Positions 9,982 to 24,372 of a DNA stretch of 32,000 bases are shown here, piece by piece. The position numbers and the translations under genes are program-made. Where the stretch lies: NCBI RefSeq assembly GCF_016127575.1, contig NZ_CP066018.1, positions 3,930,001 to 3,962,000 of the forward strand, written 5' to 3'. This DNA comes from Cupriavidus necator. Its GTDB lineage: Bacteria > Pseudomonadota > Gammaproteobacteria > Burkholderiales > Burkholderiaceae. Position 1 is the first letter of the stretch; each line of letters begins with the position of its first letter. The notes below the pieces were generated by a model. The model did not search any database. It had not been told where the DNA came from and saw nothing but the letters and a program-made list of their open reading frames with translations.

Positions 9982-10058
9982 TGGCGGAGTGGACGGGACT
10001 CGAACCCGCGACCCCCGGCGTGACAGGCCGGTATTCTAACCGACTGAACTACCACTCC
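9982..10058 (-). tRNA. tRNA-Asp (anticodon GTC)
   Basis: The reverse complement reads GGAGTGGTAGTTCAGTCGGTTAGAATACCGGCCTGTCACGCCGGGGGTCGCGGGTTCGAGTCCCGTCCACTCCGCCA. It has cloverleaf arms, anticodon loop CTGTCAC and an encoded CCA, and is near-identical in form to E. coli tRNA-Asp. Confidence 0.95.
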
Positions 10059-10110
10059 TGTGTCGGCGCTTGCTGCTGGCGATGCACATGCCCTTGCGAT
10101 GGCGAGTAGC

Positions 10111-10135
10111 GGGTGCTGAGGACGCCTTGCAAGGG
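10111..10135 (-). repeat. Decayed partial copy of tRNA-Val (anticodon-arm/variable region plus 3' acceptor strand, T-arm missing); candidate att-type direct repeat
   Basis: GGGTGCTGAGG (10111-10121) is identical to 21534-21544 of tRNA-Val. ACGCCTTGCAAGGG (10122-10135) matches 21563-21576 at 13 of 14 positions. Order and orientation are the same, with the 18 nt of the T-arm absent between the two blocks. Confidence 0.6.
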
Positions 10136-10312
10136 AATCGAATTTCCTTACAAATCATAAGCCTACAACGCCTACCAACCTTCCCTTGCCGACCGTGCCC
10201 TGCTGCAAGAGGCCGAACTATAGCTCGTGTTCATCATCTGCGCAATACCCGGATGACTCAACCTTGTACCCTCGCCGCTCTGCCCGATGAGGTGGCGTTC
10301 AGCGCAAACTCC

Positions 10313-11329
10313 TTACTCCTCAATCCGTATCCTTGCCGCCTTGACAGCCGCGCCCCATCGTTGATTCTCAGCCTGGACAAATTCACCGAACTTCTTGGGG
10401 TCAATCGTGATTGGCGTATAGCCCATGTCGGCGAGGCGTGCACGGAACTCTGGTTGGGACGTGGCGCGAGTCACCTGCGCCTGGATGGCATCAACCACCA
10501 CTTGCGGCGTATTTGGCGGAGCGAGCACGCCAAACCAGGTGTCAGCGTCGATGGCATAGCCACTTTCGGTGAGCGTAGGAATCTCCTTGATTGACGGGAA
10601 GCGCTCAGGAGATCCCAATGCATAAAGCCGCAGTTTGGTCTTGTTGGCGACCGCCAAAGGTGTGGGAATGAATGCATAGTCAACTTGACCACCCATGACA
10701 GCTGTCATGACCGGTGCAGCGCCGCCGAACGGCACTTCGAGCATGTTGTTGATGTGCGCCTTGGTCTTGAGCAATTCCATGCCCATTTGCGCCATGCTCC
10801 CCGGCCCCCAATGACCATAGGAAAGTGAGCTGGCTTTTGCCTTCGCGACGATGTCCTGGACAGTCCTGGTCTCGGCATCTGGACGACTTGCCAGAACGAA
10901 GCCCATCTTGGCTACGGGAGCAACGGGCCGGAAGCCATTGGGCTGAAACTGGACGACCTTCTTGTGAATATACGGTGCGACTGAAATAAAGTCGGCGGCC
11001 GCAAACAGCAACGTGTACCCATCCGGTGGCGATGCATAAGCGACATTGGCACCAATCACGCCGTTGGCACCCGGCCGGTTCTCCACCACGATGGGTTGGC
11101 CAAGTCCGTTACCAATGCCCGCCACGACAAGGCGGGCGAGTACATCCGTTCCCCCGCCTGGCGCATACGGAACGACCAGCCGAATCGGTTTAGTGGGCGT
11201 CCACCCCGGTTGAGCGTTTGCCGGATTGGCCGCCCACATTGCGGCGAACAGCGTCGCAGCGGCGCCCACAAGGCGAACGCCTCCCTTGGCGCTTCCAGCA
11301 AAGCGCCCCACTGATACCATGAAGTTCAT
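10313..11329 (-). CDS. Bug-family (TctC-like) tripartite tricarboxylate transporter substrate-binding protein
   Basis: Signal peptide, then the typical Bug N-terminus KPIRLVVPYAPGGGTDVLARL...ENRPGANG. AGGAGA SD 5 nt before ATG 11329. Confidence 0.85.
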   Translation of the reverse strand: MNFMVSVGRFAGSAKGGVRLVGAAATLFAAMWAANPANAQPGWTPTKPIRLVVPYAPGGGTDVLARLVVAGIGNGLGQPIVVENRPGANGVIGANVAYASPPDGYTLLFAAADFISVAPYIHKKVVQFQPNGFRPVAPVAKMGFVLASRPDAETRTVQDIVAKAKASSLSYGHWGPGSMAQMGMELLKTKAHINNMLEVPFGGAAPVMTAVMGGQVDYAFIPTPLAVANKTKLRLYALGSPERFPSIKEIPTLTESGYAIDADTWFGVLAPPNTPQVVVDAIQAQVTRATSQPEFRARLADMGYTPITIDPKKFGEFVQAENQRWGAAVKAARIRIEE

Positions 11330-11372
11330 GTTGTCTCCTGACTGTTCTAATGTGCCATCGTGTGGTTCGCAG

Positions 11373-12842
11373 TCATCTGTGGACTGCCTGCTGCGCTGCA
11401 TGCTCGCCGGCAAGCTTTCCGAATACCGCGCCTCGCATTACCGACGTAGCCCCCGTGTAGACCTGGTAGTAAAGGCCCGATGCTTCGCCCGCGGCATACA
11501 GTCCGGGGATAGCCTTGCCGTCGGCGTCCACAACCTGAGCGTCCCGATTGATCTTGATGCCTCCGAACGTGAAACAAATGCCAGGCATGATCGGATAGGC
11601 ATAGTAGGGTGCGCTGGCAATGGGGCGTGCCCAATTGGACTTCCTGGGGAGAATGCCTGAGGTCGCAAGATGGTCCTCTTCGAGCGGCATGAAAGTCCCG
11701 GTAGGGCAAGCCGCGTTGAACCCTCGCACAGTCCCTTCAAGGCCCTCAGCGGAAATGCCGCAACGCTGCGCCAACTCTGCCAGCGTTCCTGCCTGGAGGG
11801 GGGGCTGATCTGTGCGAATGCCTTTTCTCCAGTTCGGCACATCGTTGATCCGCTCGTCGAAGATGACGTAAGCGATGCCGTCTGGCTGGTCCTTGATCGC
11901 ACGGGAGATATGATCGTAATGCACGTCGACCGGTCCCGGCGCCTCATCCGTAAAGCGTAGACCGAGCTTGTTCACCAGGATCCCATACGGAAAATTCATC
12001 ACAAGCGCTTCGACCTGTGCGGATCGGGGATCCAGCGGCTCGGCGTGAAACGAGCTGAAATCTCCGGCTGGTGCCGCACCCAGGTTCAGCGCCATGCGGA
12101 TTCCTTCGCCCTTGTTGTAGTAGCCGCCGCGTGCGACAGGACGGATATAGCGCGCCGCGGGCCCCATGTACTGCGTCAGCATTTCCGGATTGCCTTCAAA
12201 TCCACCCGACGCAATCACAACCGAGCGGCCGAGGAGTTCGAATGCATTCCCATCGGCGCCAACCAGACCCAGTCGAAGCTGGCCATTGGCGTCGCGCCGG
12301 GACAGCGAGTTTGCTGTCGTCTCGTAGTAGAACTTGACGCCAAGATCGCCAGCACGCGCATGCAATGCCTCGATCATGGCCAGGCCTCCGCCAACCGGCA
12401 TTAGCCGAGGTGCCGCCGCCGTGACGAAGTAAGTGGGCAGCGCGTCAAAGCGAATGCCAAAGGTCTGGAGCCACTGCACCGTCGGGCCAGCTTCGCACGA
12501 AAGCGTCGACAGCAGTTCGGGGTCCGGCATGCCATGTGCCTTCACGTACGCGGGCCACTCTGCATACGGTGCGGCCATGCTGCGAACAACGTTGGGATCG
12601 AGATTGTCGCCCGCATTGGCGCTCAGCAAGTCATCGAAATCGTCGCTGACCTCGGTATCGCTCTTCATGCGGAAGTACGCCTCGGTCCATCGCGTGTTGC
12701 CGCCATACTCTGCTCGCGTGGCGCGCTCAAGCACGGCCACGCGAGCACCCTTCCCCGCGGCAGCCACGGCCGCCGACAAGCCGGAGATGCCGCAACCGAT
12801 AACGACGACATCGTAGTAGGCGGCACTGTGTGCAGCGCTCAT
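11373..12842 (-). CDS. FAD-dependent oxidoreductase, fumarate reductase/succinate dehydrogenase flavoprotein-like (TcuA / KstD-type)
   Basis: Dinucleotide fold YDVVVIGCGISGLSAAVAAA. The C-terminal region NWARPIASAPYYAYPIMPGICFTFGGIKIN...LYAAGE resembles TcuA-type flavoproteins (recalled, not searched). GAGGAGA SD before ATG 12842. Confidence 0.8.
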   Translation of the reverse strand: MSAAHSAAYYDVVVIGCGISGLSAAVAAAGKGARVAVLERATRAEYGGNTRWTEAYFRMKSDTEVSDDFDDLLSANAGDNLDPNVVRSMAAPYAEWPAYVKAHGMPDPELLSTLSCEAGPTVQWLQTFGIRFDALPTYFVTAAAPRLMPVGGGLAMIEALHARAGDLGVKFYYETTANSLSRRDANGQLRLGLVGADGNAFELLGRSVVIASGGFEGNPEMLTQYMGPAARYIRPVARGGYYNKGEGIRMALNLGAAPAGDFSSFHAEPLDPRSAQVEALVMNFPYGILVNKLGLRFTDEAPGPVDVHYDHISRAIKDQPDGIAYVIFDERINDVPNWRKGIRTDQPPLQAGTLAELAQRCGISAEGLEGTVRGFNAACPTGTFMPLEEDHLATSGILPRKSNWARPIASAPYYAYPIMPGICFTFGGIKINRDAQVVDADGKAIPGLYAAGEASGLYYQVYTGATSVMRGAVFGKLAGEHAAQQAVHR

Positions 12843-12865
12843 CGTGCGTCTCCTCTTTTTTGCTT

Positions 12866-14347
12866 TTAGTACTTCCGGACAAACGGATCCGGCATCTCGA
12901 GATCGGTGGATACCCATACGCTCTTGGTCTCCATGAACTCCTTGACCGCCTCTGTGCCACCCTCACGCCCTAGACCGCTATCCTTGTAGCCGCCAAATGG
13001 CGTGGTGAAACTCGTGGAGCGGTAGTTGTTGATCCAGACCGTTCCTGCTTGCAAGCGCTCAGACATGTACATGGCTCGGTGCAGACTCTTGGTCCATACG
13101 CCGGCCGCGAGGCCGAACCGGATATCGTTCGCGATGCGCAGCGCATCGTCTTCATCCTTGAACTTAAGCACAGACAGTACAGGGCCAAAGACCTCTTCCT
13201 GCGCAATGCGCATGTCGTTGGTCACATTGGTAAAAATTGTCGGCTCGACGAACTGACCCGCGCCGTAGTCCGCGCCGCTGCGCGTCTTGCCACCGAAAGC
13301 ACAGGTCGCCCCGTCTTCCCGAGCAATGCGGATGTAGTCGACCACCTTCTCAAACTGCGGACGGGTCGCCACAGGCCCCATCTGCACATCCGAACGCGCG
13401 GGATCACCGAGCTTCGCCTTGCTCGTGATTGCAACCAGCCGATCGACGAACTCGTCGTGAATGCTCTCCTGCAGCAGCAATCGCGAGCCGGCCATGCAAG
13501 TCTGGCCACCTGCCGAGAAGATCCCGGTGATGACCCCATTTGCTGCGTTGGTGAGGTCGGCATCGTCGAAGACGATATTCGGTGATTTTCCGCCAAGTTC
13601 CAGGGTGACCTTCTTGAAGTGTGCCGCCGCGGCAAGATTGACGCGTCGGCCTCCTTCATCCCCCCCGGTAAAGGCGATCATGGGCACTAGCGGATGCTCG
13701 ACCAGCGGCTCGCCGACATCCCTGCCGAATCCCGTCACCACATTGAAGACACCCGGCGGAAAGCCCGCCTTGACGAACAGCCTGGCCAGTTCCAGCAGGG
13801 ATGCCGAGGTGTGCTCGGACGGCTTGGCTACGATCGCATTGCCCGCACAAAGGGCAGGCGCAACCTTCCAGGCTGTCAGCAGCAGGGAAGAATTCCACGG
13901 CGTGATCGTGCCAACGACGCCCACCGGCTCCAGTCGGGTGTAGTTAAACACCTTCGGCTTGTCCATCGGCACGACCGCGCCCTGAATCTTGTCCGCCATG
14001 CCCGCATAGTAATAGAAGTACTTGGCGACATAGCCGACCTGGCCTCGTACTTCGCTGCGCAATTTGCCATTGTCACGCGCTTCCACTTCCGTCAGCAGAT
14101 CGATGTTCTCTTCGATCAGTCCGGCCAGCTTGTACAGCAGCATCCCGCGGTTAGTCGCCGACATTTTGGACCATGGCCCTTTCATCGCTGCGGCGGCAGC
14201 CTGAGCCGCGCGATCGACGTCTTCGCGTGTTCCGCGCGGAATCTCGGCCCATGCTTCGCCGGTGAACGGATCGAGCGATTCAAACCATTGACCTCGGCTC
14301 GGATCAACCCATTCGTTATTGATGAAGAGTTGGTATCGCGGCTGCAT
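12866..14347 (-). CDS. NAD(P)+-dependent aldehyde dehydrogenase
   Basis: ALDH hallmarks: LFINNEWV N-terminus, catalytic Glu motif ELGGKSP, catalytic Cys motif GQTCMAGSR. AGGAGA SD before ATG 14347. Confidence 0.9.
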   Translation of the reverse strand: MQPRYQLFINNEWVDPSRGQWFESLDPFTGEAWAEIPRGTREDVDRAAQAAAAAMKGPWSKMSATNRGMLLYKLAGLIEENIDLLTEVEARDNGKLRSEVRGQVGYVAKYFYYYAGMADKIQGAVVPMDKPKVFNYTRLEPVGVVGTITPWNSSLLLTAWKVAPALCAGNAIVAKPSEHTSASLLELARLFVKAGFPPGVFNVVTGFGRDVGEPLVEHPLVPMIAFTGGDEGGRRVNLAAAAHFKKVTLELGGKSPNIVFDDADLTNAANGVITGIFSAGGQTCMAGSRLLLQESIHDEFVDRLVAITSKAKLGDPARSDVQMGPVATRPQFEKVVDYIRIAREDGATCAFGGKTRSGADYGAGQFVEPTIFTNVTNDMRIAQEEVFGPVLSVLKFKDEDDALRIANDIRFGLAAGVWTKSLHRAMYMSERLQAGTVWINNYRSTSFTTPFGGYKDSGLGREGGTEAVKEFMETKSVWVSTDLEMPDPFVRKY

Positions 14348-14460
14348 CTATGTCTCCTGAGGTGAGTAAGGCCAGCGAAAAGCGCTGTATTGTGGGGATA
14401 TTCTGGCGGCCACAACGCGCGACGGCAAACGAGAAGAACTGTGGACTTGATGAGGTTTTC

Positions 14461-15681
14461 TCACGATCTGGAGGCCGCAAGATTCAGCCGGAATGCAGCC
14501 GCCAGCGCGTCTGCCACACGCGCAAGGTTTTGGCTGTTGAGCGCAGCGATGCAGATGCGACCCGAGTCAGCCCCGTAGATGGCGCACTCTTCGCGCAAGT
14601 ACTCCATTTGGGCTTGTTTGAGACCGGAATAGCTGAACATGCCCTTCTGGCGTTCGATGAAGGCGAAATCCTTATCGACACCTCGGGCCTTGAGCGCTTC
14701 ACTTAACTCTGTGCGCATGCGGCAGATCCGCAGGCGAATCGCTTCGAGCTCTGCCTGCCAATGCTCTCGCAGCAATGGCGTGGTCAGGACCTGCGTGACC
14801 AGCCGCCCGCCATGGGATGGCGGATTCGAGTAATTCGTACGGATCAGGAGTTTCAACTGCGAGCGCACGCGCACAGCCACATCTTCTGTCGGACAAACCA
14901 CAGAGAGGGCCCCGACTCGCTCGCCGTACAGCGAGAAGTTCTTTGAGAATGACGTGGCCACCATGCATGGCAATCCTGCCTCCACAAATGCGCGAGCCAC
15001 ACGCGCATCGGCGTCGAGGCCATCCCCGAAGCCCTGATATGCCATGTCAATCAGTGGTATCAGACGTCGCTGCGCGATGATATCGATGATCGCCGGCCAG
15101 GCATCCTGGGGCAGGTCGTACCCGGTCGGGTTGTGACAGCAGGCATGCAAGACCACAACCGTCCCGGCACTTGCATGCGACAGGTCGGTCAGCATGCCGC
15201 TCAGGTCTGGCTGCTCCGCATCGCGCGGAAGGTAGCGATACGTATGAACCTGGTAACCCGCCCTTGACAGTACTCCGCGGTGGTTTTCCCAAGTCGGCTC
15301 GCTAATCAGGGCACGCGCAGGCGCCCCCCATCGTCTCGCGAATTCTGCGCCAAGGCGCAGCGCACTGGTTCCGCCCACCGTTTGCACCGTGGCAACGCGC
15401 CTGGCCAGCGCCGAGTCCGCGTCGATACCGAAGACGATGGGAAGAACTGCATGCTGGAAGGCCACAGTGCCGTCGATAGGCTGATAACCGCGCGGCAGCC
15501 TCGCCGCTACCAGGTCAGCCTCAGCGTTTGCAATGCATTCGAGCAGGGGAATCCGGCCACCATCGTCGTGGTAGACACCTACCGCAAGGTTCACCTTCTC
15601 AGGACGCGGATCGTGTGCAAATTGCTCGTTCAGGCCAAGGATTGGATCCCTGGGAGCCATTGGAAGGGACGTCAGAAACAT
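14461..15681 (-). CDS. Class I aminotransferase, aspartate/aromatic amino acid type (AspC/TyrB family)
   Basis: N-terminus MF...APRDPILGL...NLAVGVY and the PLP-lysine motif SFSKNFSLYGERVG parallel E. coli AspC (SYSKNFGLYNERVG). Confidence 0.88.
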   Translation of the reverse strand: MFLTSLPMAPRDPILGLNEQFAHDPRPEKVNLAVGVYHDDGGRIPLLECIANAEADLVAARLPRGYQPIDGTVAFQHAVLPIVFGIDADSALARRVATVQTVGGTSALRLGAEFARRWGAPARALISEPTWENHRGVLSRAGYQVHTYRYLPRDAEQPDLSGMLTDLSHASAGTVVVLHACCHNPTGYDLPQDAWPAIIDIIAQRRLIPLIDMAYQGFGDGLDADARVARAFVEAGLPCMVATSFSKNFSLYGERVGALSVVCPTEDVAVRVRSQLKLLIRTNYSNPPSHGGRLVTQVLTTPLLREHWQAELEAIRLRICRMRTELSEALKARGVDKDFAFIERQKGMFSYSGLKQAQMEYLREECAIYGADSGRICIAALNSQNLARVADALAAAFRLNLAASRS

Positions 15682-15788
15682 CTTGAACTCGCTCTACTTG
15701 GTGGGAGCGAGTCATTCTCCGTGTCGCCTGGAACGGCAGTAAAACGAGTTTTTCTCCAGTACTGATGCGCCTGGCGCAAGTAGCCCCC

Positions 15789-15809
15789 AAAAAGTTACGC
15801 GAACGCAAC
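15789..15809 (-). terminator. Weak candidate intrinsic terminator after the LysR gene
   Basis: Imperfect hairpin GTTGCG-TTCG-CGTAAC on the minus strand, with one mismatch, followed by TTTTT. Confidence 0.3.
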
Positions 15810-15818
15810 TTATCGACC

Positions 15819-16724
15819 CTACTTTAGCCGGGATTTCCACTCCGCTTCGATCCCGACCACCCAGTCTCGAAATAGCTGCACGAGCGCCGAGTCCTTCTTC
15901 CGTTCCGGATACACGAGGCAATAGCGCTTCTCGTGCTTAAGAGACAGATCGAACGGCACGACAAGATCGTTGCGCTCGATCTCATCTTGTACATACATGC
16001 GGGGAACCAGGCCAGCGCCTAACCCTGCTCGCGCAGCTTCGATGACCATGCCGTACAACTCGAAATGCATGCTCGAAACCGGTGTAAAGTCCGCCACCGC
16101 GGCCATCGCAAACCAGTGCCGCCATGCTTCTGGCCGGGTGGACTTGTGCAAGAGCGGCAGTTCCGCCAAGTCTGCCGGCGCACCCAAGAGCTGGGTGTCA
16201 AAGTAGCGGGGGCTCACGATCGGGACCAGTTCTTCGTCAAACAGGTCGACCCTTACCACATTGGTCCAGGCCGGATGCTCGAAATTGAGCGCCGCATCGA
16301 AGTTGGTTTCGTCAAAGCTAAAGGGCAGTGGGCGCTCTGAGAGATTGAGAATAATGTCCGGATGACGCTCACGGAAATCGCGCAGGCGCGGCAGCAGCCA
16401 CCTGTTTGCAAACGTGGGGATCACCGCCAGTTCAAGCACGCCGCCAACGCCCTTGTGCGCCATCAGAGCGGAGGTGTGTGCCTCTATCTCCGCAAGGTTA
16501 CGCGCAATATTCTTCAGATACAGGCGGCCGGCATCATTGAGAACGACCTGCTTGCGGACCCGCGTGAAGAGCTTGACGCCCAGATATGTTTCCAGTGTCG
16601 CGATCTGCCTGCTCACGGCGCTCTCGGTCAGGCACACCTCGCTTGCCGCACGGGCAAAACTGCCTTGCCTTGCTGCCGCCTCGAAGACCGCCAGGGCGAT
16701 CGTGCTTGGAATCTTACGTCTCAT
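15819..16724 (-). CDS. LysR-family transcriptional regulator (GcvA-like subgroup)
   Basis: N-terminal wHTH (FEAAARQGSFARAASEVCLTESAVSRQIATLE) plus a LysR substrate-binding domain. Confidence 0.9.
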   Translation of the reverse strand: MRRKIPSTIALAVFEAAARQGSFARAASEVCLTESAVSRQIATLETYLGVKLFTRVRKQVVLNDAGRLYLKNIARNLAEIEAHTSALMAHKGVGGVLELAVIPTFANRWLLPRLRDFRERHPDIILNLSERPLPFSFDETNFDAALNFEHPAWTNVVRVDLFDEELVPIVSPRYFDTQLLGAPADLAELPLLHKSTRPEAWRHWFAMAAVADFTPVSSMHFELYGMVIEAARAGLGAGLVPRMYVQDEIERNDLVVPFDLSLKHEKRYCLVYPERKKDSALVQLFRDWVVGIEAEWKSRLK

Positions 16725-16861
16725 GGCTCACATCCACGTCTTGCTTACTCAGATTGCATTAGTTGTTGATTATTACTCAGTTGCCCGTATTACGCGGTTT
16801 CGCCAATACTCCGGGGCAACCCGCATGGTCCTGCAGACGGCGGATACGATCCGGAAATGCT

Positions 16862-17158
16862 ATGACCCAGAACTTGATGGCACGAATTCGCGAGGCGATT
16901 CTCGATGCCGCACCCTTAGAGCCTCTTGTCAGCCCTCTCGACCGGGATCAGGCCATTACCTTGCTGCAGGATGCCATCCTGGCTGACGACATCGAACGTC
17001 AGATCATCTGCCTCGCTGCCGCGGTGGAGCTACACGCGGTTGTTTCCCAGGATCTGTGGCGACATTGCGAGCGCAAGGCCGGAGACAGTGGCGATGCCGC
17101 ATTGAGTCGACTGTTCCGCAGCGCGCGTGGCCGATCCTTCGCCAGGATGATGCGCTGA
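16862..17158 (+). CDS. Hypothetical protein (98 aa), no family recognised; may be a 5' gene remnant
   Basis: ORF divergent from the LysR gene, with codon usage like the surrounding low-GC3 block and a weak SD. The C-terminal about 20 aa are Arg-rich (SRLFRSARGRSFARMMR), so the end may not be native. Confidence 0.3.
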   Translation: MTQNLMARIREAILDAAPLEPLVSPLDRDQAITLLQDAILADDIERQIICLAAAVELHAVVSQDLWRHCERKAGDSGDAALSRLFRSARGRSFARMMR

Positions 17159-17303: not shown

Positions 17304-17843
17304 TCAGGCGCACATGCGCGCCTGGAGCGCCATCAGCTCATGCTTGACGACCTTGCCCGCGGCATTGGTCGGCAGGGCCGCCATGAAGGCCACGGAACGT
17401 GGCACCTTATAGTTTGCCAGGCGGGCTTTGCACCATTCCAGCAATACCTCCCCGCTCATGCTCTCGCCTTCGCGCAACACCACGAAGGTGCGGCCAACCT
17501 CGCCCAGGCGCGTATCGGGTACGCCGACCACCGCGACCTGCGCCACCGCCGGATGCGTGCCAATCAGGTGCTCGATCTCCGCGGGATAGCAGTTGAAGCC
17601 GCCCACGATGAACATGTCCTTGAGCCGGCCGGTGATACACAGGTTTCCGGCGGCGTCGACGCTGCCGATGTCGCCTGTATGCAGCCACCCCGCGTCGTCG
17701 ATGGCCTCGCGTGTGGCGGCCTCGCCGTCGAAGTACCCACGCATGACGGTGTAGCCGCGGATCCACACTTCGCCCGGGTCACCGCCACTCAGCGAGCTGA
17801 CGGTACGATGAGCAGACGCATCGCCCTGGCCGGAGGGTGCCAT
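17304..17843 (-). pseudogene. 5'-truncated acyl-CoA synthetase / AMP-dependent ligase (C-terminal about 165 aa only)
   Basis: The clear ANL-superfamily C-terminal half is present (GEVWIRGYTVMRGY, WLHTGDIG, GRLKDMFIVGGFNCYPAEIE, HPAVAQVAVVGVPD, YKVPR). Similarity stops near 17800. The space for the missing about 350 N-terminal aa is occupied by an intact SDR gene on the other strand. Confidence 0.75.
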
Positions 17844-17993
17844 GGCGAAAAAATCGTCTCGGGCGCGGTTGTTTTGGTCCATTTGGACTATGTCGCACCC
17901 CGCGTGACCGGAAACAATGCGCCTATCAGCCGCGAATATCGGCCGACATGTCGCCGCTGCGCGACCAACCATGACATCCGGGAGAGACATCCA

Positions 17994-18791
17994 GTGACGA
18001 CCCAACACCCTGTCACCGACGATTTTCGCGTGACCCTCAACACGCCGGCCAGCGCGGTCGTGGTTACCGGCGGCGCGTCCGGCATTGGCGAGGCTTGTGC
18101 AGCGGCCCTGTCCGCCATCGGCCGGCCGGTCGCCATCTGGGATATCCAGGAGGACAAGGCGCGTGCCGTCGCCGCGGCGCTCGCCGAACGTTATGACGTG
18201 CCCACCTTCGGGCTCGGCATCGACCTGCGCGCCCCCGCCGGCCTGGAACACGCGCTGGTCCGCACCCGCGCCGCCCTGCCGGCGCTGGGCGGCATGGTGC
18301 ATGCTGCCGGCGTGGTGGACCAGAGCGGGATCGACGGCCTTACACAGGCGCGCTGGGACGCGGTGCTTGATGTCAACCTGCGCGCCATGGCCCTGCTGGT
18401 GCAAGCCATGCTGCCTGACCTGCGCGCGCAACCTGGCGCGGCAGTCGTCGGCATCGCGTCGATCAATGCCACGCTGGGCAACGCCCTGATTCCGGCTTAC
18501 TCCGCCTCCAAGGGCGGCCTGCTCTCGCTGGTGCGCTCGCTCGCGGACAGCCTGGGCCGCGACGGCATCCGCATCAACGCCGTCTCTCCCGGACAGATCC
18601 ACACACCGATGCTTCAACCTGCCATCGATGCCCTGCCCGAAGGCACCTTCGAGCGACGCATCCAGCTGGGCCGCCTCGGCACCCCCGCGGAGATCGGGCG
18701 AGTGGTCCGTTTCCTTCTGTCGGACGAGGCCAGCTACGTCACCGGCACCGAGCTCATCGTCGACGGCGGCAACATTCCTTCGCAGCGCTGA
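17994..18791 (+). CDS. SDR-family oxidoreductase
   Basis: TGGASGIG cofactor motif, NAxG-like HAAG, and catalytic YSASK. GTG start with GGAGAG 7 nt upstream. The upstream part of the 536-aa track ORF is an antisense shadow of the ligase remnant. Confidence 0.85.
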   Translation: MTTQHPVTDDFRVTLNTPASAVVVTGGASGIGEACAAALSAIGRPVAIWDIQEDKARAVAAALAERYDVPTFGLGIDLRAPAGLEHALVRTRAALPALGGMVHAAGVVDQSGIDGLTQARWDAVLDVNLRAMALLVQAMLPDLRAQPGAAVVGIASINATLGNALIPAYSASKGGLLSLVRSLADSLGRDGIRINAVSPGQIHTPMLQPAIDALPEGTFERRIQLGRLGTPAEIGRVVRFLLSDEASYVTGTELIVDGGNIPSQR

Positions 18792-18914
18792 ATCGGAGCG
18801 CCCTGTCCTGTGGCTGCTGGGCCGTTCTCATACTGGGTCGCCATCCTCCGGCCGGACGTCCAGCCCTGGTTCTTCCGTCAGCCTTTCGACGCTCGAGGCT
18901 CACCGCGGGACGCC

Positions 18915-20039
18915 CTATGCAGTCCTGGCCCGTTCTGCAAGCAGCTTCAGCAGCCGTGCCTCGTCGGCACGCAGGCGGCTGACGATGGCGACGCGCGCGC
19001 AGTCCTGCAATCCGTCGTCGATGAAGGCCTCGATCACCGCCGGATGGACATAGCACTTGCGGCACACCGCCACGGTGTTGCGCAGGCGCTGGGCCACTGA
19101 CTTGATGACCTCGGCCACGCACTTCCTGCGCGCTGCTTCGCCGTCCGCGCCGGCCGCGCGCAGCAGCGCGAGCGCATGCACGCTGCCCGCCCAGGTGCGG
19201 AAGTCCTTGGCAGTGAAGTCGCCGCCGGTCGCCTGTTGCAGGTAGGCGTTGACGTCGGCGGATCCGACCTCGCGGATCTCGCCGTCGCTGTCGCGATACT
19301 TGAACAGGCACTGGCCTGGCAGGTCGGCACAATTGCGCACGATGCGGGCCAGGCGCGGATCGTTGACCGATACGTCGTGGGTGATGCCGCTCTTGCCAGT
19401 GAACTGGAAACGCAGCCGGCTGCCGCGCACGGTGACATGGCGGCGGCGCAGCGTGGTGAGGCCGTAGGTGCGGTTCTGCCGCGCATATTGCGGACTACCC
19501 ACGCGCACAAGCGTGGCGTCGAGCAGTTGCACCACCGCCGCGACCACTTTTTCGCGCGGCATGCCGTTGCGGCGCAGGTCGCGCGCGACGCGCGCCCGCA
19601 AGCGGGGCAGTACGCTGCCGAAGGCCGGCAACCGCGCGTATTTGTCCGAATCGCGCTGCGCGCTCCACTCAGGGTGGTAGACATACTGCTTGCGGCCGCG
19701 CGCATCGCGCCCGGTCGCCTGCAGGTGGCCCGCAGGGTTCGCACAGATCCACACTTCCTCGTAGGCAGGAGGAATCGCCAGCGCAGCAATGCGTGCCAGC
19801 GTGGCGGCATCGTCCACGCGCTTGCCGTTGGCGTCGATGTAGGCAAAGCCGCCGCCCTGACGGCGGCGCCCGATGCCCGGCATACTGTCATCGACATAAC
19901 GCAACCCGGCCTCGCGCAATACCGTACGCAACGCTTTGTCGGCACCATTAGTCGGGAGGGCACTATCCAAGGCTGGGTCTCTTTCCGGGGCTGCCAGCGC
20001 GCCGTCCGGGTCTTCCGGCGCTTTATGCGTGCGGGCCAC
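18915..20039 (-). CDS. Type IB DNA topoisomerase (poxvirus/eukaryote-like bacterial TopIB)
   Basis: Family-typical blocks are present: YVDDSMPGIGRRR..GFAY.D, ALAIPPAYEEVWIC, GRDARGRKQYVYH, F.FTGKSG (catalytic Lys region), DFRTWAGS (Arg region) and RNTVAVCRKCYVHP (catalytic Tyr). The start is uncertain. GTG 20039 overlaps the upstream gene by 17 nt. TTG 19970 is an alternative. The ATGs at 20189-20270 would overlap the upstream gene by more than 160 nt. Confidence 0.85.
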   Translation of the reverse strand: MARTHKAPEDPDGALAAPERDPALDSALPTNGADKALRTVLREAGLRYVDDSMPGIGRRRQGGGFAYIDANGKRVDDAATLARIAALAIPPAYEEVWICANPAGHLQATGRDARGRKQYVYHPEWSAQRDSDKYARLPAFGSVLPRLRARVARDLRRNGMPREKVVAAVVQLLDATLVRVGSPQYARQNRTYGLTTLRRRHVTVRGSRLRFQFTGKSGITHDVSVNDPRLARIVRNCADLPGQCLFKYRDSDGEIREVGSADVNAYLQQATGGDFTAKDFRTWAGSVHALALLRAAGADGEAARRKCVAEVIKSVAQRLRNTVAVCRKCYVHPAVIEAFIDDGLQDCARVAIVSRLRADEARLLKLLAERARTA

Positions 20040-20589
20040 AGTGGCCTTGCCCGCGCTGCGCCTGTTCGTGGTAATGGCAAATGCGAGCCAGCGCCCAGTC
20101 GGCAGCGGCTTCGCGTACGGCGTTACGCGTCCCCGGAAAGCGCCGCGTTTCCGTGAACGCGGCAATACCCCCGGTGCTCCGCAGCACATCACGCGCCGCA
20201 TGGCCGTGGCGGCGGAACACCCAGGCAAAGCACTGCGTGCCCGCCGGGATATCGCCATCGCCGCCATCATCGGCGACGCCGGTGTTGGCGATCGCGAGGT
20301 CGGCGCCGGTCATCTCCATGGCGCCCAGCGCCATCGCCAGCGAGACCGCCTCGCTGGTCAGTCCGTGTTGCCTGATGGTCTCAGGCGGCACGTGCAGCAA
20401 CTGTTCCTTGGCCGAGGGCGAATACGCCACGATGGCGCAGTGCAAGACATCTCCGCAACCCGGCACCTCGGCGATGCGCGAGGCGATCAGCCCCGCGGTA
20501 CAGGACTCCGCCGTGACCACATGCAAATGGTGGCGCAGCAAATAGCGCGCAATGCTGCCGTTGTCGCTGCCGTTTTCCCCAAGCGTCAT
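20023..20589 (-). CDS. pncC: CinA C-terminal domain / PncC-like nicotinamide-nucleotide amidohydrolase
   Basis: TAESCTAG motif, YS.SAKEQLL, HG.TSEAV, and NTG..DDGG...P.GT..FAW align with E. coli PncC/YgaD as recalled. ATG 20589 overlaps the upstream stop (ATGA). Confidence 0.8.
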   Translation of the reverse strand: MTLGENGSDNGSIARYLLRHHLHVVTAESCTAGLIASRIAEVPGCGDVLHCAIVAYSPSAKEQLLHVPPETIRQHGLTSEAVSLAMALGAMEMTGADLAIANTGVADDGGDGDIPAGTQCFAWVFRRHGHAARDVLRSTGGIAAFTETRRFPGTRNAVREAAADWALARICHYHEQAQRGQGHCGPHA

Positions 20590-21185
20590 CGCTGCGCCTC
20601 CGACGCCTGCACAGACACTCCGTTGCTGCGCGAGACAGCATGCGTGGCCGGTGCTGCGGGTACGCGGCCGTCGCCGCCGCGGCCCTTCACGAACGTCACC
20701 TTGCCGTCGCGCTCCAGCACCACCCGGGTAAGGTCGTCGAAGCTGTCGGTCTGAAGTGTCGCACGCAGGTTGGCCTTGAGGTCCTCCTCGGTCAGCATTG
20801 CGTGGCTCACGCGCTCCCGGTCCAGTTCCCCCTCGCGCAGCAGGTCCAGCGCGTGGCCGCCAGTGGCGCGGTCGAATGCCGGAGAACGGCTCGACAGCCA
20901 GCCCACCACCCGGTGCAGAAGCACCAATGCCAGCCCGGCGGAAAACGCCACCGCGAACGAAGTGGCCCCGACCACGGCGCGCGACAACACCGCGCCCAGC
21001 AGCAACATGATGCACAGGTCGAACGATGTCTTTTGCGCGAAGGCCCGCCTGCCGGCCAACCGCAGCATCGCCCAGGTGCCGGCGAAGATGATGGCGGCAC
21101 GCACGGCGCCTTGCCACCACGCCAGGTCGTCACCTTCGCCCACGAGCTTGCGCATCGCATCGACGATCACTTCCACGCTGTCCAT
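20586..21185 (-). CDS. DUF421 (YetF-like) membrane protein
   Basis: N-terminal TM helices, R.FAQKTSFD..IMLLLGAVLS, and a YetF-type C-terminal domain (LLREGELDRERVSHAMLTEEDLKANLR...VVLERDGKVTFVK). Confidence 0.75.
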   Translation of the reverse strand: MDSVEVIVDAMRKLVGEGDDLAWWQGAVRAAIIFAGTWAMLRLAGRRAFAQKTSFDLCIMLLLGAVLSRAVVGATSFAVAFSAGLALVLLHRVVGWLSSRSPAFDRATGGHALDLLREGELDRERVSHAMLTEEDLKANLRATLQTDSFDDLTRVVLERDGKVTFVKGRGGDGRVPAAPATHAVSRSNGVSVQASEAQR

Positions 21186-21479
21186 GTCGGCGTCCGCAGT
21201 CGATTTCCTGACTGGTTCCGCAAGTTCCGCGCCAGGCTCACGACACTGGGCCGTGCTGCCGTGCACGTCCCATATGCGCTCATTCGCGCGGGAATGCGGG
21301 GAAATCGTACGTGCAGTGCCGGGCCAGGCCTGAAAAAACTGCGCAGAGCGCGCGCAACATCGGGAGCGAATAGCGCTTATCTGTGGGACGCCGGAAAACA
21401 CCGGCCGGGAGCGCCATGCCGAGCAACGGCGGAACAGCAATTTAGCGCGCGGCTCGGCCGGAGGGAGATGAAAATACCA

Positions 21480-21511
21480 ACAAAAAAGGACTTAGATCGC
21501 TCTAAGTCCTT
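21480..21511 (-). terminator. Rho-independent terminator immediately after tRNA-Val
   Basis: Perfect 11-bp AT-rich stem AAGGACTTAGA (21486-21496) / TCTAAGTCCTT (21501-21511) with a 4-nt loop. On the minus strand it is followed by TTTTTTGTT. Confidence 0.75.
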
Positions 21512-21529
21512 GATTTTGTTAGTCAAGCG

Positions 21530-21606
21530 TGGTGGGTGCTGAGGGGTTCGAACCCCCGACCTACGCCTTGTAAGGGCGCCGCTCTACCAACTGAGCTAAG
21601 CACCCG
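21530..21606 (-). tRNA. tRNA-Val (anticodon TAC)
   Basis: The reverse complement reads GGGTGCTTAGCTCAGTTGGTAGAGCGGCGCCCTTACAAGGCGTAGGTCGGGGGTTCGAACCCCTCAGCACCCACCA. It forms a cloverleaf with anticodon loop CTTACAA and an encoded CCA. Confidence 0.95.
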
Positions 21607-21734
21607 CTCGACCATCACAGGCTGGCTGCCTGCAACTTGCTGATCGCTCCACACCTCGCGGCAGTTGCCGTGGTTTGCGTTGCGAGGGCGCAAGTGTAAT
21701 ACAGGTGATTTCGGTTTGCCAAGGCCTGTGCGCG

Positions 21735-21795: not shown

Positions 21796-24210
21796 TCAGT
21801 GATGCAGACGCTCAACCTTGGCCGTGGCCTTGTCCGCCACTTCGGCGGGCTTGGCATCTTCTTCAGGCAACGCCTCGGGCTTGCGCTCGAGCGCCAGTTC
21901 CAGCACCTTGTCGATCCAGCGGACCGGCACGATCTCGATGGCGTTCTTCACGTTGTCGGGGATCTCGGCCAGATCCTTGACGTTTTCCTCCGGGATCAGC
22001 ACCAGCTTGATGCCGCCCCGGTGGGCCGCCAGCAGCTTCTCCTTGAGGCCCCCGATCGGCAGCACCTCGCCGCGCAGCGTGATCTCGCCGGTCATGGCGA
22101 CATCCGCGCGCACCGGGATGCCGGTCAGCACCGACACCAGCGCCGTGGTCATGGCACCGCCTGCGGACGGGCCGTCCTTGGGCGTGGCGCCTTCAGGCAC
22201 GTGGATGTGGATGTCGCGCTTCTCGAACATCTCATCCGTGATACCCAGGCGACGTGCCCGCGAACGCACCACCGAACGTGCGGCCTCGACCGACTCCTTC
22301 ATCACATCGCCCAGCGAACCGGTACGCGTGATGTTGCCCTTGCCCGGCATGATCGCGGCTTCGATGGTCAGCAGATCGCCGCCCACCTCGGTCCACGCCA
22401 GACCGGTGACCTGGCCAACCTGGTTTTCCTTGCCGGCCAGGCCGAAATCGTACTTGCGCACGCCGAGGAATTTGTCCAGGTTCTCGGAATCGACCTTGAT
22501 CGTGCCCGACTCCTTCTTCAGCAGCAGCAGCTTGACCACCTTGCGCGCGATCTTGGAGACCTCGCGTTCCAGCGAACGCACCCCCGCTTCACGTGTGTAG
22601 TAGCGGATGATGTCGCGGATCGCGCTTTCGGCAACCTCGATCTCGCCTGCCTTCAGACCGTTGTTCTTGATCTGCTTGGGCAACAGGTAGCGCTGCGCGA
22701 TATTGACCTTCTCGTCCTCGGTGTAACCCGACAGGCGGATCACCTCCATACGATCGAGCAGCGGCGGCGGGATGTTGAGCGAGTTCGACGTGGCCACGAA
22801 CATCACGTCGGACAGGTCGAAATCCACTTCGATGTAGTGGTCCTGGAACGTGTGGTTCTGTTCCGGGTCCAGCACCTCGAGCAGCGCCGACGACGGATCG
22901 CCGCGGAAATCCATGCCCATCTTGTCGATCTCGTCGAGCAGGAAGAGCGGATTGCGCACGCCGACCTTGGACAGGCTCTGCAGGATCTTGCCCGGCATCG
23001 AGCCGATATAGGTCCTGCGGTGGCCGCGGATTTCGGCCTCGTCACGCACGCCACCCAGTGCCATGCGCACGAACTTGCGGTTCGTCGCGCGCGCCACCGA
23101 CTGGCCGAGCGAGGTCTTGCCCACGCCGGGAGGCCCGACCAGGCAGAGGATAGGTGCCTTCACCTTGTCCACGCGCTGTTGCACCGCGAGGTACTCGAGA
23201 ATGCGTTCCTTGACCTTCTCCAGGCCGTAGTGGTCTTCATCCAGCACGCGCTCGGCGTTGGCGAGGTCGTTGTTGACCTTGCTCTTCTTGCGCCATGGCA
23301 GGTTCACCAGCGTGTCGATGTAGTTGCGCACGACGGTGGCTTCGGCCGACATCGGCGACATCAGCTTGAGCTTCTTGAATTCGGCGTCGGCCTTCTTCTT
23401 GGCTTCCTTCGGCATCCGCGCAGCCTTGATGCGCTTGTCGAGTTCTTCCAGGTCGGCGCCTTCTTCGCCCTCGCCGAGTTCCTTCTGGATGGCCTTGACC
23501 TGCTCGTTCAGGTAGTACTCGCGCTGGCTCTTCTCCATCTGGCGCTTGACGCGGCCACGGATGCGCTTTTCAACCTGGAGGATGTCGATCTCGCCCTCGA
23601 GCTGCGACAGCAGGCTTTCCAGGCGTTCGGTCACATTGACCATCTCCAGGATCTTCTGCTTCTGCTCGAGCTTGATCGGCAGGTGCGCGGCGATGGTGTC
23701 CGCCAGGCGGCCTGCCTCGTCGATGCCCGACAGCGAGGTCAGGATCTCGGGCGGGATCTTCTTGTTGAGCTTCACGTACTGGTCGAACTGCGACACGATC
23801 GCGCGGCGCAGGGCCTCGGTCTCGGCGCTTTCGCCAGGTGCGGGCGGCACGGGCACGGCTTCGCACATAAAGTGCGCATCGTCCTCGCTCACCTCGCGGA
23901 TATTCGCGCGCTGGGTACCCTCGACCAGCACCTTCACGGTACCGTCGGGCAGTTTCAGCATTTGCAGGATATTGGCGATGCAGCCGACCTCATACAGGTC
24001 GTCGGCGGTCGGCTCGTCCTTGGCCGCCGTCTTCTGGGCCACGAGCATGATGCTCTTGCCCGCCTCCATCGCAGTCTCAAGCGCCTTGATGGACTTCGGG
24101 CGTCCCACGAACAGCGGGATCACCATGTGCGGAAACACCACCACGTCGCGCAGCGGCAACAGTGGGAGGCGAATCGGCTCGGCCGGGAGGAGTTGTGTTC
24201 CGGACATCAT
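21796..24210 (-). CDS. lon: ATP-dependent Lon protease
   Basis: LON N-domain, Walker [10 protein letters not shown], and the catalytic Ser region PKDGPSAG. The GGGGA SD sits just before the ATGATG pair at 24210/24207. The track start at 24228 has no SD. Confidence 0.95.
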
Positions 24211-24372
24211 TTTCCCCAAGTCAGTCATTTAAGGCGTAAATTGGGCCGCCCGAATCGATTACAAGATACGTGCCAATCGATTCATCAAGGCAGGCAGATG
24301 CCGCTCCCTGCACTTGCTGGCCCCTCTGAAACAGCATACCCGCGTTTCCTCCCTCTCGTCGGTAGAAATAAA

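Follow-up and report, generated by a model that had tools for sequence, protein, structure and literature searches.

A probable mosaic DUF421-CinA-topoisomerase IB operon with a predicted sigma-54-type promoter in Cupriavidus necator H16-like strains

Published work on bacterial type IB DNA topoisomerases (TopIB) deals with enzymology, as in Pseudomonas aeruginosa (PMC2666729), and some physiology of the Deinococcus enzyme has been published (bioRxiv 10.1101/2020.06.24.169326). The closest described relatives of the two genes that accompany the TopIB gene studied here are the PncC/CinA-C nicotinamide mononucleotide (NMN) deamidases, such as Escherichia coli PncC/YgaD, and the DUF421 proteins YetF and YdfS of the Bacillus spore inner membrane (3C6F; PMC10126465). 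In an H16-like strain of Cupriavidus necator, three open reading frames (ORFs) lie in the same direction on the minus strand of chromosome 1 and encode, in this order, a DUF421/YetF-like protein, a CinA/PncC domain protein and a TopIB. They occupy positions 18915-21185 of a 32,000-nucleotide stretch (contig NZ_CP066018.1, positions 3,930,001 to 3,962,000), and this whole stretch is called the window below. We found nothing in the published bacterial TopIB work that links TopIB to CinA or DUF421, and nothing on a Cupriavidus TopIB. The first-pass annotation of this DNA raised the possibility that the three genes form an undescribed system. Here, we report that the arrangement is not conserved among bacterial TopIB loci and that the unit is probably a mosaic operon of the H16-like lineage.

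The window TopIB is like DraTopIB (2F4Q/3M4A) and P. aeruginosa PAT (PMC2666729) in having a Top1B_N_bact domain, a Topoisom_I core and an Arg-Lys-Arg-Asn-Tyr pentad, and it differs from them only in its context, as the third gene behind DUF421 and CinA, and in its probable TTG start. The scores on PF21338 (Top1B_N_bact, 88.6 bits) and PF01028 (Topoisom_I, 117.8 bits) were both well over the cutoffs, and the Deinococcus radiodurans enzyme 2F4Q was matched with an E value of 6.9e-67. In the numbering of a 374-residue model, R179, K216, R281, N321 and Y330 align with R137, K174, R239, N280 and Y289 of 2F4Q, which we take to be the catalytic residues of DraTopIB; the pentad is invariant across 23 homologues.

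The CinA protein resembles the PncC-type NMN deamidases (E. coli PncC/YgaD; 6L19, 2A9S, 5KVK) in being a stand-alone domain of about 165 to 190 residues. Its sole Pfam match was PF02464 (128.2 bits), with no MoCF_biosynth-like N-terminal domain, and it aligned with the C-terminal part alone of NF001813 (positions 262-407 of 414); it thus differs from the full-length CinA proteins (competence/damage-inducible) in lacking the N-terminal MoCF-type domain. TIGR00199 (PncC_domain) was matched at 89.6 bits (cutoff, 68.9), and relatives in the Protein Data Bank (PDB) were found with E values from 1e-18 to 7e-15 (5KVK, 1.4e-18), including the PncC family amidohydrolase 6L19. Ser29 (in TAESCT) and Lys61 (in YSPSAK) are intact, and we take them to correspond to the catalytic dyad S29/K61 of E. 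coli PncC. The protein fell far short of the PncC equivalog level (99 bits on NF002975, against a cutoff of 212) and scored 78.6 bits on the 2-oxo-tetronate isomerase model, for which the cutoff is 201; it was therefore filed only as a CinA-domain family protein, and NMN would be a candidate substrate. Its gene also differs from PncC-type genes in its partner, which is a DUF421 gene and not recA or an NAD-salvage gene.

The DUF421 protein probably shares with Bacillus YetF an N-terminal membrane region and a YetF_C-like soluble domain, but it belongs to a nonsporulating betaproteobacterium and matches only about half of the YetF_C model (positions 3-68 of 129). As a single sequence, it scored 22.8 bits on YetF_C, slightly below the Pfam cutoff of 23.6, and 18.6 bits on YetF_N (PF20730; cutoff, 26.5), while the hydrophobic segments are apparent in the sequence. 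A single-sequence search of the PDB gave noise only; a profile of 24 homologues matched the B. subtilis YetF structure 3C6F with an E value of 1.4e-4, and many of the homologues carry a precomputed PF04239 assignment. The window protein is probably a divergent, half-length member of the YetF family of membrane proteins.

Judged by these Pfam, NCBIfam and PDB matches, the three products are ordinary members of known families, as the first-pass annotation had assigned them. All three genes are under purifying selection relative to their relatives, with ratios of nonsynonymous to synonymous substitution (dN/dS) of 0.26-0.44 for DUF421, 0.18-0.20 for CinA and 0.13-0.24 for TopIB and without internal stops or frameshifts, and the synonymous distances (dS) are similar for the three, at about 0.57-0.83. 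The 374-residue TopIB model is identical to the NCBI protein P0001, and an identical protein is present on 81 contigs of H16-like strains. None of the three proteins matched any family of the PADLOC defence models.

The neighbourhood of TopIB was surveyed with one genome per species. More than 595 TopIB loci were found, and the best 80 were taken with flanks of ±8 kb and searched by tblastn with the window DUF421 and CinA proteins. Besides the window type, the trio arrangement was present in 1 of the 80 loci, that of Cupriavidus sp. UYPR2.512 (L006), which is the closest relative (96% TopIB identity) and in which CinA is destroyed. CinA adjoined TopIB in none of the 79 other species-level loci. 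An unrelated DUF421 gene (27% identity) lies upstream of TopIB in a Pseudomonas locus (L078), and in another locus (L023) a CinA gene lies about 4.7 kb from TopIB on the opposite strand. To guard against insensitivity of tblastn, Pfam scans were also made of the two ORFs closest to TopIB on either side in 57 loci, with the Pseudomonas synteny group thinned to three, and the neighbour ORFs were compared by all-against-all clustering. Among 112 upstream ORFs, 2 encoded DUF421, and CinA was outside the 25 most frequent families; downstream, the commonest families were response regulators (6), ParBc_2 (5) and RES (4), and no single family predominated. A large ABC_tran cluster was rejected as a universally conserved neighbour, as it consisted mostly of Pseudomonas modABC synteny and unrelated ABC ATPase genes from a few other loci, and no other universal neighbour was found. 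The survey thus contradicts the suggestion of a conserved system: in the best 80 of the more than 595 loci, the DUF421-CinA-TopIB neighbourhood is restricted to the C. necator H16-like lineage. TopIB follows modABC in Pseudomonas, a DUF3182-hydrolase pair in other Cupriavidus strains and DUF421-CinA in the window.

The two parts of the unit have their usual homes elsewhere in the genus. The DUF421 subfamily comprises only 62 clusters, nearly all from Cupriavidus, and its usual place is on chromosome 2, in the order MFS, DUF2188, BON, (FMN_red), DUF421, (CinA), an ORF of about 115 residues and GlgE. CinA follows DUF421 there without TopIB, and with the same 4-nucleotide overlap as in the window, in L086-L088, L091 and L092. 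It is absent from Cupriavidus sp. WKF15 (L093) and is reduced to a 49-residue stub in the Cupriavidus numazuensis-like loci L094 (6588-6737) and L095 (3161-3310), with DUF421 intact in each case. By this comparison, CinA has been lost downstream of DUF421 independently at least twice. The shared overlap, together with the repeated losses, indicates that the DUF421-CinA coupling is ancestral and CinA dispensable; the ATGA overlap itself, pointed out in the first-pass annotation and present in the orthologous loci too, is by the same comparison ancestral to the DUF421-CinA module. The TopIB orthologues of other Cupriavidus strains (77-84% identical; P0003, 84%) lie in PRC-BON-DUF3182-hydrolase-TopIB-ParBc_2-BON-SDR arrays.

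In Cupriavidus sp. UYPR2.512, the locus aligns with window positions 21442-20504 and 20064-18901. The missing part (20065-20503) is a 439-bp deletion that leaves a 29-residue stub of CinA (L006 7800-7886), and an insertion of about 49 nucleotides with stop codons lies ahead of TopIB. DUF421 and TopIB are intact in this strain (dN/dS, 0.39 and 0.13, respectively). On both sides, the block is bordered by DNA unrelated to that around it in the window (CYTH-CHAD upstream and a fumarase-like lyase downstream), and the block 21442-18901 is the only DNA common to the H16-type and UYPR2.512 islands.

In DNA alignments, the two modules meet at about 19975-19991. The 3' end of cinA, its stop codon (TAA at 20025-20023, where the first-pass annotation had put it) and about 30 nucleotides past the stop, up to about 19991, are homologous to the native cinA flank of L091 and L086, and homology with the TopIB loci L005 and L007 begins precisely at their ATG, which corresponds to TTG 19970 in the window. 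A joint inside the cinA 3' end, with a 17-nucleotide overlap as its scar, was considered and is refuted, since the stop codon and the 30 nucleotides behind it are native to the DUF421-CinA module.

The same alignments bear on the start of TopIB. A TTG also stands at the equivalent of 19970 in UYPR2.512; the closest TopIBs start with MDS(T/N)LP (P0004, P0007, P0009 and P0011) or MGSTLP at the TTG-aligned position; and the Shine-Dalgarno (SD)-like sequence GGAAAGAG lies 8 nucleotides upstream of the TTG. The native start is most likely TTG 19970, which would give a protein of 351 residues and a gap of 52 nucleotides after the CinA stop, with no overlap. Because the homology and the N termini of relatives favour this codon, the annotated CinA/TopIB overlap is probably an artefact, and the NCBI start (GTG, 374 residues) is probably 23 codons too long. 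GTG 20039 had been considered because the resulting MARTHK resembles the MARTEKD and MAKTQKC of Caballeronia and Paraburkholderia proteins; it was rejected, as that DNA is CinA flank, as the GTG is not conserved in UYPR2.512, where a stop follows, and as the closest TopIBs begin at the TTG-aligned site. Translational coupling of CinA and TopIB, which had been suggested together with cotranscription of the genes, is doubtful given this start; cotranscription fared better.

A sigma-54-type -24/-12 element, TGGCGCGGAACTTGC, precedes DUF421. It matches TGGCAC-N5-TTGC at 9 of 10 positions with the GG-N10-GC spacing, and it is the sole site of at least 9/10 in the 32-kb window; the published sigma-54 consensus is YTGGCACGrNNNTTGCW (PMC13207237). 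Its position is unchanged across the seven orthologous DUF421 loci (the window, L006, L086, L091, L092, L093 and L094), while the adjoining DNA has diverged, with indels of lengths not divisible by three. In its spacing, its match and its conserved position before the first gene, it is like the promoters of described sigma-54 (RpoN) operons, and from this conservation we infer sigma-54 control of the DUF421-CinA-TopIB unit. A conserved GGAAC upstream of DUF421 had been considered as the -35 element of an extracytoplasmic function (ECF)/RpoE promoter and was dropped when a wider alignment gave TGGCAC-N5-(C/T)TGC, the sigma-54 element, as the conserved core. The divergent FMN_red/BON operon (L086, L091, L092 and L093) bears another sigma-54-type element.

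No sigma-70-like promoter was found in 18600-21700, in a scan limited to sigma-70 consensus sites, and no terminator-like site was found inside the three-gene unit. Since no internal promoter of this type and no internal terminator was found and TopIB is without any native upstream DNA, cotranscription of the three genes is plausible, and the absence of native upstream DNA argues that TopIB depends on transcription from upstream. Of the two terminator-like hairpins listed in Table 1, the one after tRNA-Val would insulate the unit from tRNA/lon read-through.

Sigma-54-type motifs recur before TopIB elsewhere. Over 81 loci, seven motifs of at least 9/10 were observed within 300 nucleotides upstream of TopIB, against 1.2 expected; six are in Burkholderiaceae. 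They lie 15-80 nucleotides before the likely TopIB starts, in Cupriavidus, Paraburkholderia, Caballeronia and one Pseudomonas. A perfect match upstream of TopIB in L005, L007 and L009 was discarded, as it lies within the DUF3182 coding sequence (encoding HHGTTLA). In L007, L009 and L011, an ORF for a GSFTGA-type enhancer-binding protein lies about 7.5 kb upstream of TopIB. The literature on sigma-54 with TopIB yielded a single incidental mention: in a study of Bradyrhizobium, the genes that changed in a double rpoN mutant included one for TopIB (PMC13207237).

A TopIB 82% identical to that of the window is carried by Cupriavidus basilensis plasmid pRK1-2 (L096, 196000-224000), in a cluster of about 25 kb with GlgE, DJ-1-like, catalase, PA2169-family, DUF6496, DUF4397, PRC-barrel, ParB/Srx, YetF/DUF421 and BON genes. 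The cluster has the look of an island of stress-protection genes controlled by an alternative sigma factor, and it suggests that the trio was drawn from one shared stock of stress-type genes carried by Cupriavidus secondary replicons, where the three are not neighbours. Several intergenic sigma-54-like motifs were also seen in this cluster, for example a perfect TGGCACGCTAATTGC immediately before the catalase gene.

We favour as probable the reading that the unit is a lineage-specific mosaic operon of C. necator H16-like strains, formed as a recent patchwork. A DUF421-CinA module, with its ancestral overlap and its own sigma-54-type promoter, would have been joined directly to the TopIB start codon. 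In other Cupriavidus strains the module is found on chromosome 2, flanked by BON/FMN-reductase genes and glgE, and TopIB normally closes a DUF3182-hydrolase-TopIB array or has a putative promoter of its own. The joined block lies inside an old segment without an integrase, bounded by tRNA-Val and a tRNA-Val 3' fragment. Transcription would start about 12 nucleotides past the -12 element (near 21208), require sigma-54 and an enhancer-binding activator, and read all three genes; DUF421 and CinA would be translationally coupled through their overlap, and TopIB would be translated separately, most likely from the TTG behind the SD-like sequence. The predicted products are a YetF-like membrane protein, a Ser/Lys amidohydrolase of the NMN-deamidase family and an ATP-independent, supercoil-relaxing TopIB. 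These probably act independently, and what they have in common is probably their regulation and not a shared mechanism: each would belong to the stress/stationary-phase gene pool of the Cupriavidus secondary replicons (with BON, PRC-barrel, catalase, ParB/Srx and GlgE), from which we infer a stress role for the unit.

Several points weigh against this reading. A looser sigma-54 pattern was found twice in the 32 kb, against 2.05 expected, so that a lone match is not above chance and the sigma-54 case rests on positional conservation. In contrast to described sigma-54 operons, the window showed neither an enhancer-binding-protein gene (GAFTGA-type ORF) nor an upstream activating sequence. Sigma-54 promoter, transcription start and cotranscription are all predicted from sequence. 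The NCBI model of TopIB (P0001) starts at GTG 20039 and overlaps CinA by 17 nucleotides. The 96%-identical block in UYPR2.512 shows that the three genes were passed on together for some time, and their linkage may bring a weak selective benefit. The label of stress cluster derives from the Pfam family names of the neighbour genes.

It is unlikely, by our estimate, that the three genes are merely adjacent and transcribed separately, with an unrecognised TopIB promoter inside or after cinA and no operon. The 52-nucleotide gap, if TTG 19970 is the start, would suit such a promoter, and the promoter scan was blind to types other than sigma-70; in UYPR2.512, purifying selection on TopIB has also persisted (dN/dS, 0.13) in spite of the deletion and insertion ahead of it, so its expression may not need the upstream genes. 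On the other side, the native upstream region of TopIB is missing and the 52 nucleotides before its start derive from the CinA-module flank, the coding strand of 19971-20600 holds no sigma-54-like site of at least 8/10 and no sigma-70-like site, and there is no terminator-like structure between the genes.

The setting of the unit raises another possibility. Read along the minus strand, clpX is followed by lon (21796-24228), tRNA-Val and then the trio. An accessory segment of about 11.4 kb is inserted in the lon-tRNA-Val-tRNA-Asp-ppiD region, and the unit stands at its tRNA-Val end, as the first-pass annotation had placed it. The intact tRNA-Val closes one end of this island, and a direct repeat of the 3' part of that tRNA closes the other, immediately before tRNA-Asp and ppiD; tRNA was the sole Rfam family matched. 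In UYPR2.512, an undeleted 51-nucleotide tRNA-Val fragment (16478-16528) is found at the same junction, and the junction sequence common to the two strains shows that the insertion is old. By Pfam, the segment contains TctC, FAD oxidoreductase, aldehyde dehydrogenase, aminotransferase, LysR, a truncated AMP-binding fragment, SDR and the trio; no integrase was found in Pfam scans of the island ORFs. The G+C fraction is 0.575-0.62 at 10001-17000, against 0.64-0.74 in the flanks and 0.68 in the trio (0.79-0.85 at third codon positions). By composition the TopIB unit looks native to Cupriavidus, and the low-G+C part set against the native-looking trio makes the island a compositional mosaic.

The trio could be decaying cargo of this old island, with at least one gene no longer functional in H16, which we regard as improbable. 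The island without an integrase, the AMP-binding fragment at 17304-17882 (which seems to be what is left of a truncated gene and points to an earlier rearrangement) and the degenerate tRNA-Val repeat are what such decay would leave, and the TTG start of TopIB where relatives have ATG, the deletion of CinA in the sister species and the score of DUF421 below the Pfam cutoff can be read in the same way. The genes themselves speak otherwise: none has an internal stop or frameshift, dN/dS is 0.13-0.44 for all of them, the TopIB catalytic pentad and Ser29/Lys61 of CinA are intact, and an identical protein is kept on the 81 contigs of H16-like strains.

Very improbable is a dedicated DUF421/CinA/TopIB system of interdependent components (for example, one that links nucleotide signals or DNA damage to DNA relaxation), which the tight packing in one direction, the ATGA junction, the purifying selection on all three genes and the inheritance of 21442-18901 as the only island DNA shared by the H16 type and UYPR2.512 would favour, as the arrangement is missing from 79 of the 80 species-level TopIB loci, the sole other carrier has destroyed CinA while keeping DUF421 and TopIB intact, DUF421-CinA occurs without TopIB and DUF421 without CinA, TopIB orthologues have other partners, and known defence systems gave zero matches.

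With the mosaic operon as the preferred reading, the trio is a tempting false lead that has been removed, and it offers no guilt-by-association clue to bacterial TopIB function. In Cupriavidus, Paraburkholderia and Caballeronia, the recurrence of sigma-54-type promoters before TopIB and the DUF421 module, and the stress-protection genes around them, give a lead on when bacteria use TopIB. Tentatively, Burkholderiaceae TopIB might belong to a sigma-54-dependent stress/dormancy regulon on secondary replicons, with BON, PRC-barrel, catalase, ParB/Srx, YetF-like and CinA-like genes, and in H16 a natural fusion would then have brought TopIB under the DUF421 sigma-54 promoter; if this holds, the long-undefined role of TopIB becomes testable through its activator and signal. 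For Burkholderiaceae, sigma-54 control of TopIB and of the DUF421 module is a prediction that can be tested and is not a result.

Table 1. Features of the DUF421-CinA-TopIB locus and its surroundings (window positions unless a locus is named)
Feature	Position	Strand	Basis
DUF421/YetF-family membrane protein, 199 residues; hydrophobic N-terminal segments and one YetF_C-like half-domain	20586..21185	-	Pfam, family profile
Stand-alone CinA C-terminal (PncC-like) amidohydrolase domain protein, 188 residues	20023..20589	-	PF02464, TIGR00199, PDB matches
Type IB DNA topoisomerase (bacterial, poxvirus-like), 351 residues from probable start TTG 19970; open frame reaches 20270	18915..19970	-	Pfam, 2F4Q match, N termini of relatives
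ATGA stop/start overlap, DUF421/CinA	20586..20589	-	Sequence; same 4-nucleotide overlap in L086-L088, L091, L092
Spacer and module junction: CinA-module 3' flank, then joint to TopIB; SD-like GGAAAGAG at 19986-19979	19971..20022	-	DNA alignment
Putative sigma-54-type -24/-12 element TGGCGCGGAACTTGC; 3' end 34 nucleotides upstream of DUF421 ATG	21220..21234	-	Motif score and positional conservation
Terminator-like hairpin and T-run after tRNA-Val; 11-pair stem, then TTTTGTTGGT	21486..21511	-	Terminator scan
Second terminator-like hairpin, upstream of promoter region	21338..21358	-	Terminator scan
tRNA-Val (TAC), intact boundary of accessory segment	21530..21605	-	ARAGORN; Rfam tRNA, 73.5 bits
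Degenerate tRNA-Val 3' fragment with 18-nucleotide internal deletion; far boundary	~10105..10140	-	Sequence comparison
AMP-binding (acyl-CoA synthetase-like) C-terminal domain only; between SDR gene and small hypothetical ORF	17304-17882	-	Pfam
TopIB-upstream sigma-54 motifs	L010 7949, L011 7955, L017 7823, L018 7839, L020 7864, L022 7875, L029 7908		

Other TopIB neighbourhoods showed arrangements of their own. In 26 Pseudomonas species, TopIB lies directly after a molybdate-type ABC transporter (binding protein, permease and TOBE-domain ATPase) on the same strand, and a nitronate monooxygenase-like gene precedes the array in 22 of the 26 loci (which include L021, L024 and L025); the Pseudomonas modABC-TopIB arrangement is a lineage-specific synteny. 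In diverse bacteria, the two ORFs closest to TopIB on its downstream side include RES-domain toxins (4 ORFs) and Xre/MbcA/ParS antitoxin domains (2 ORFs), which hints that some TopIB genes lie in mobile or variable regions. In the island of the window, the SDR gene that neighbours the AMP-binding fragment is called as 265 or 327 residues, depending on the gene caller, in identical strains.

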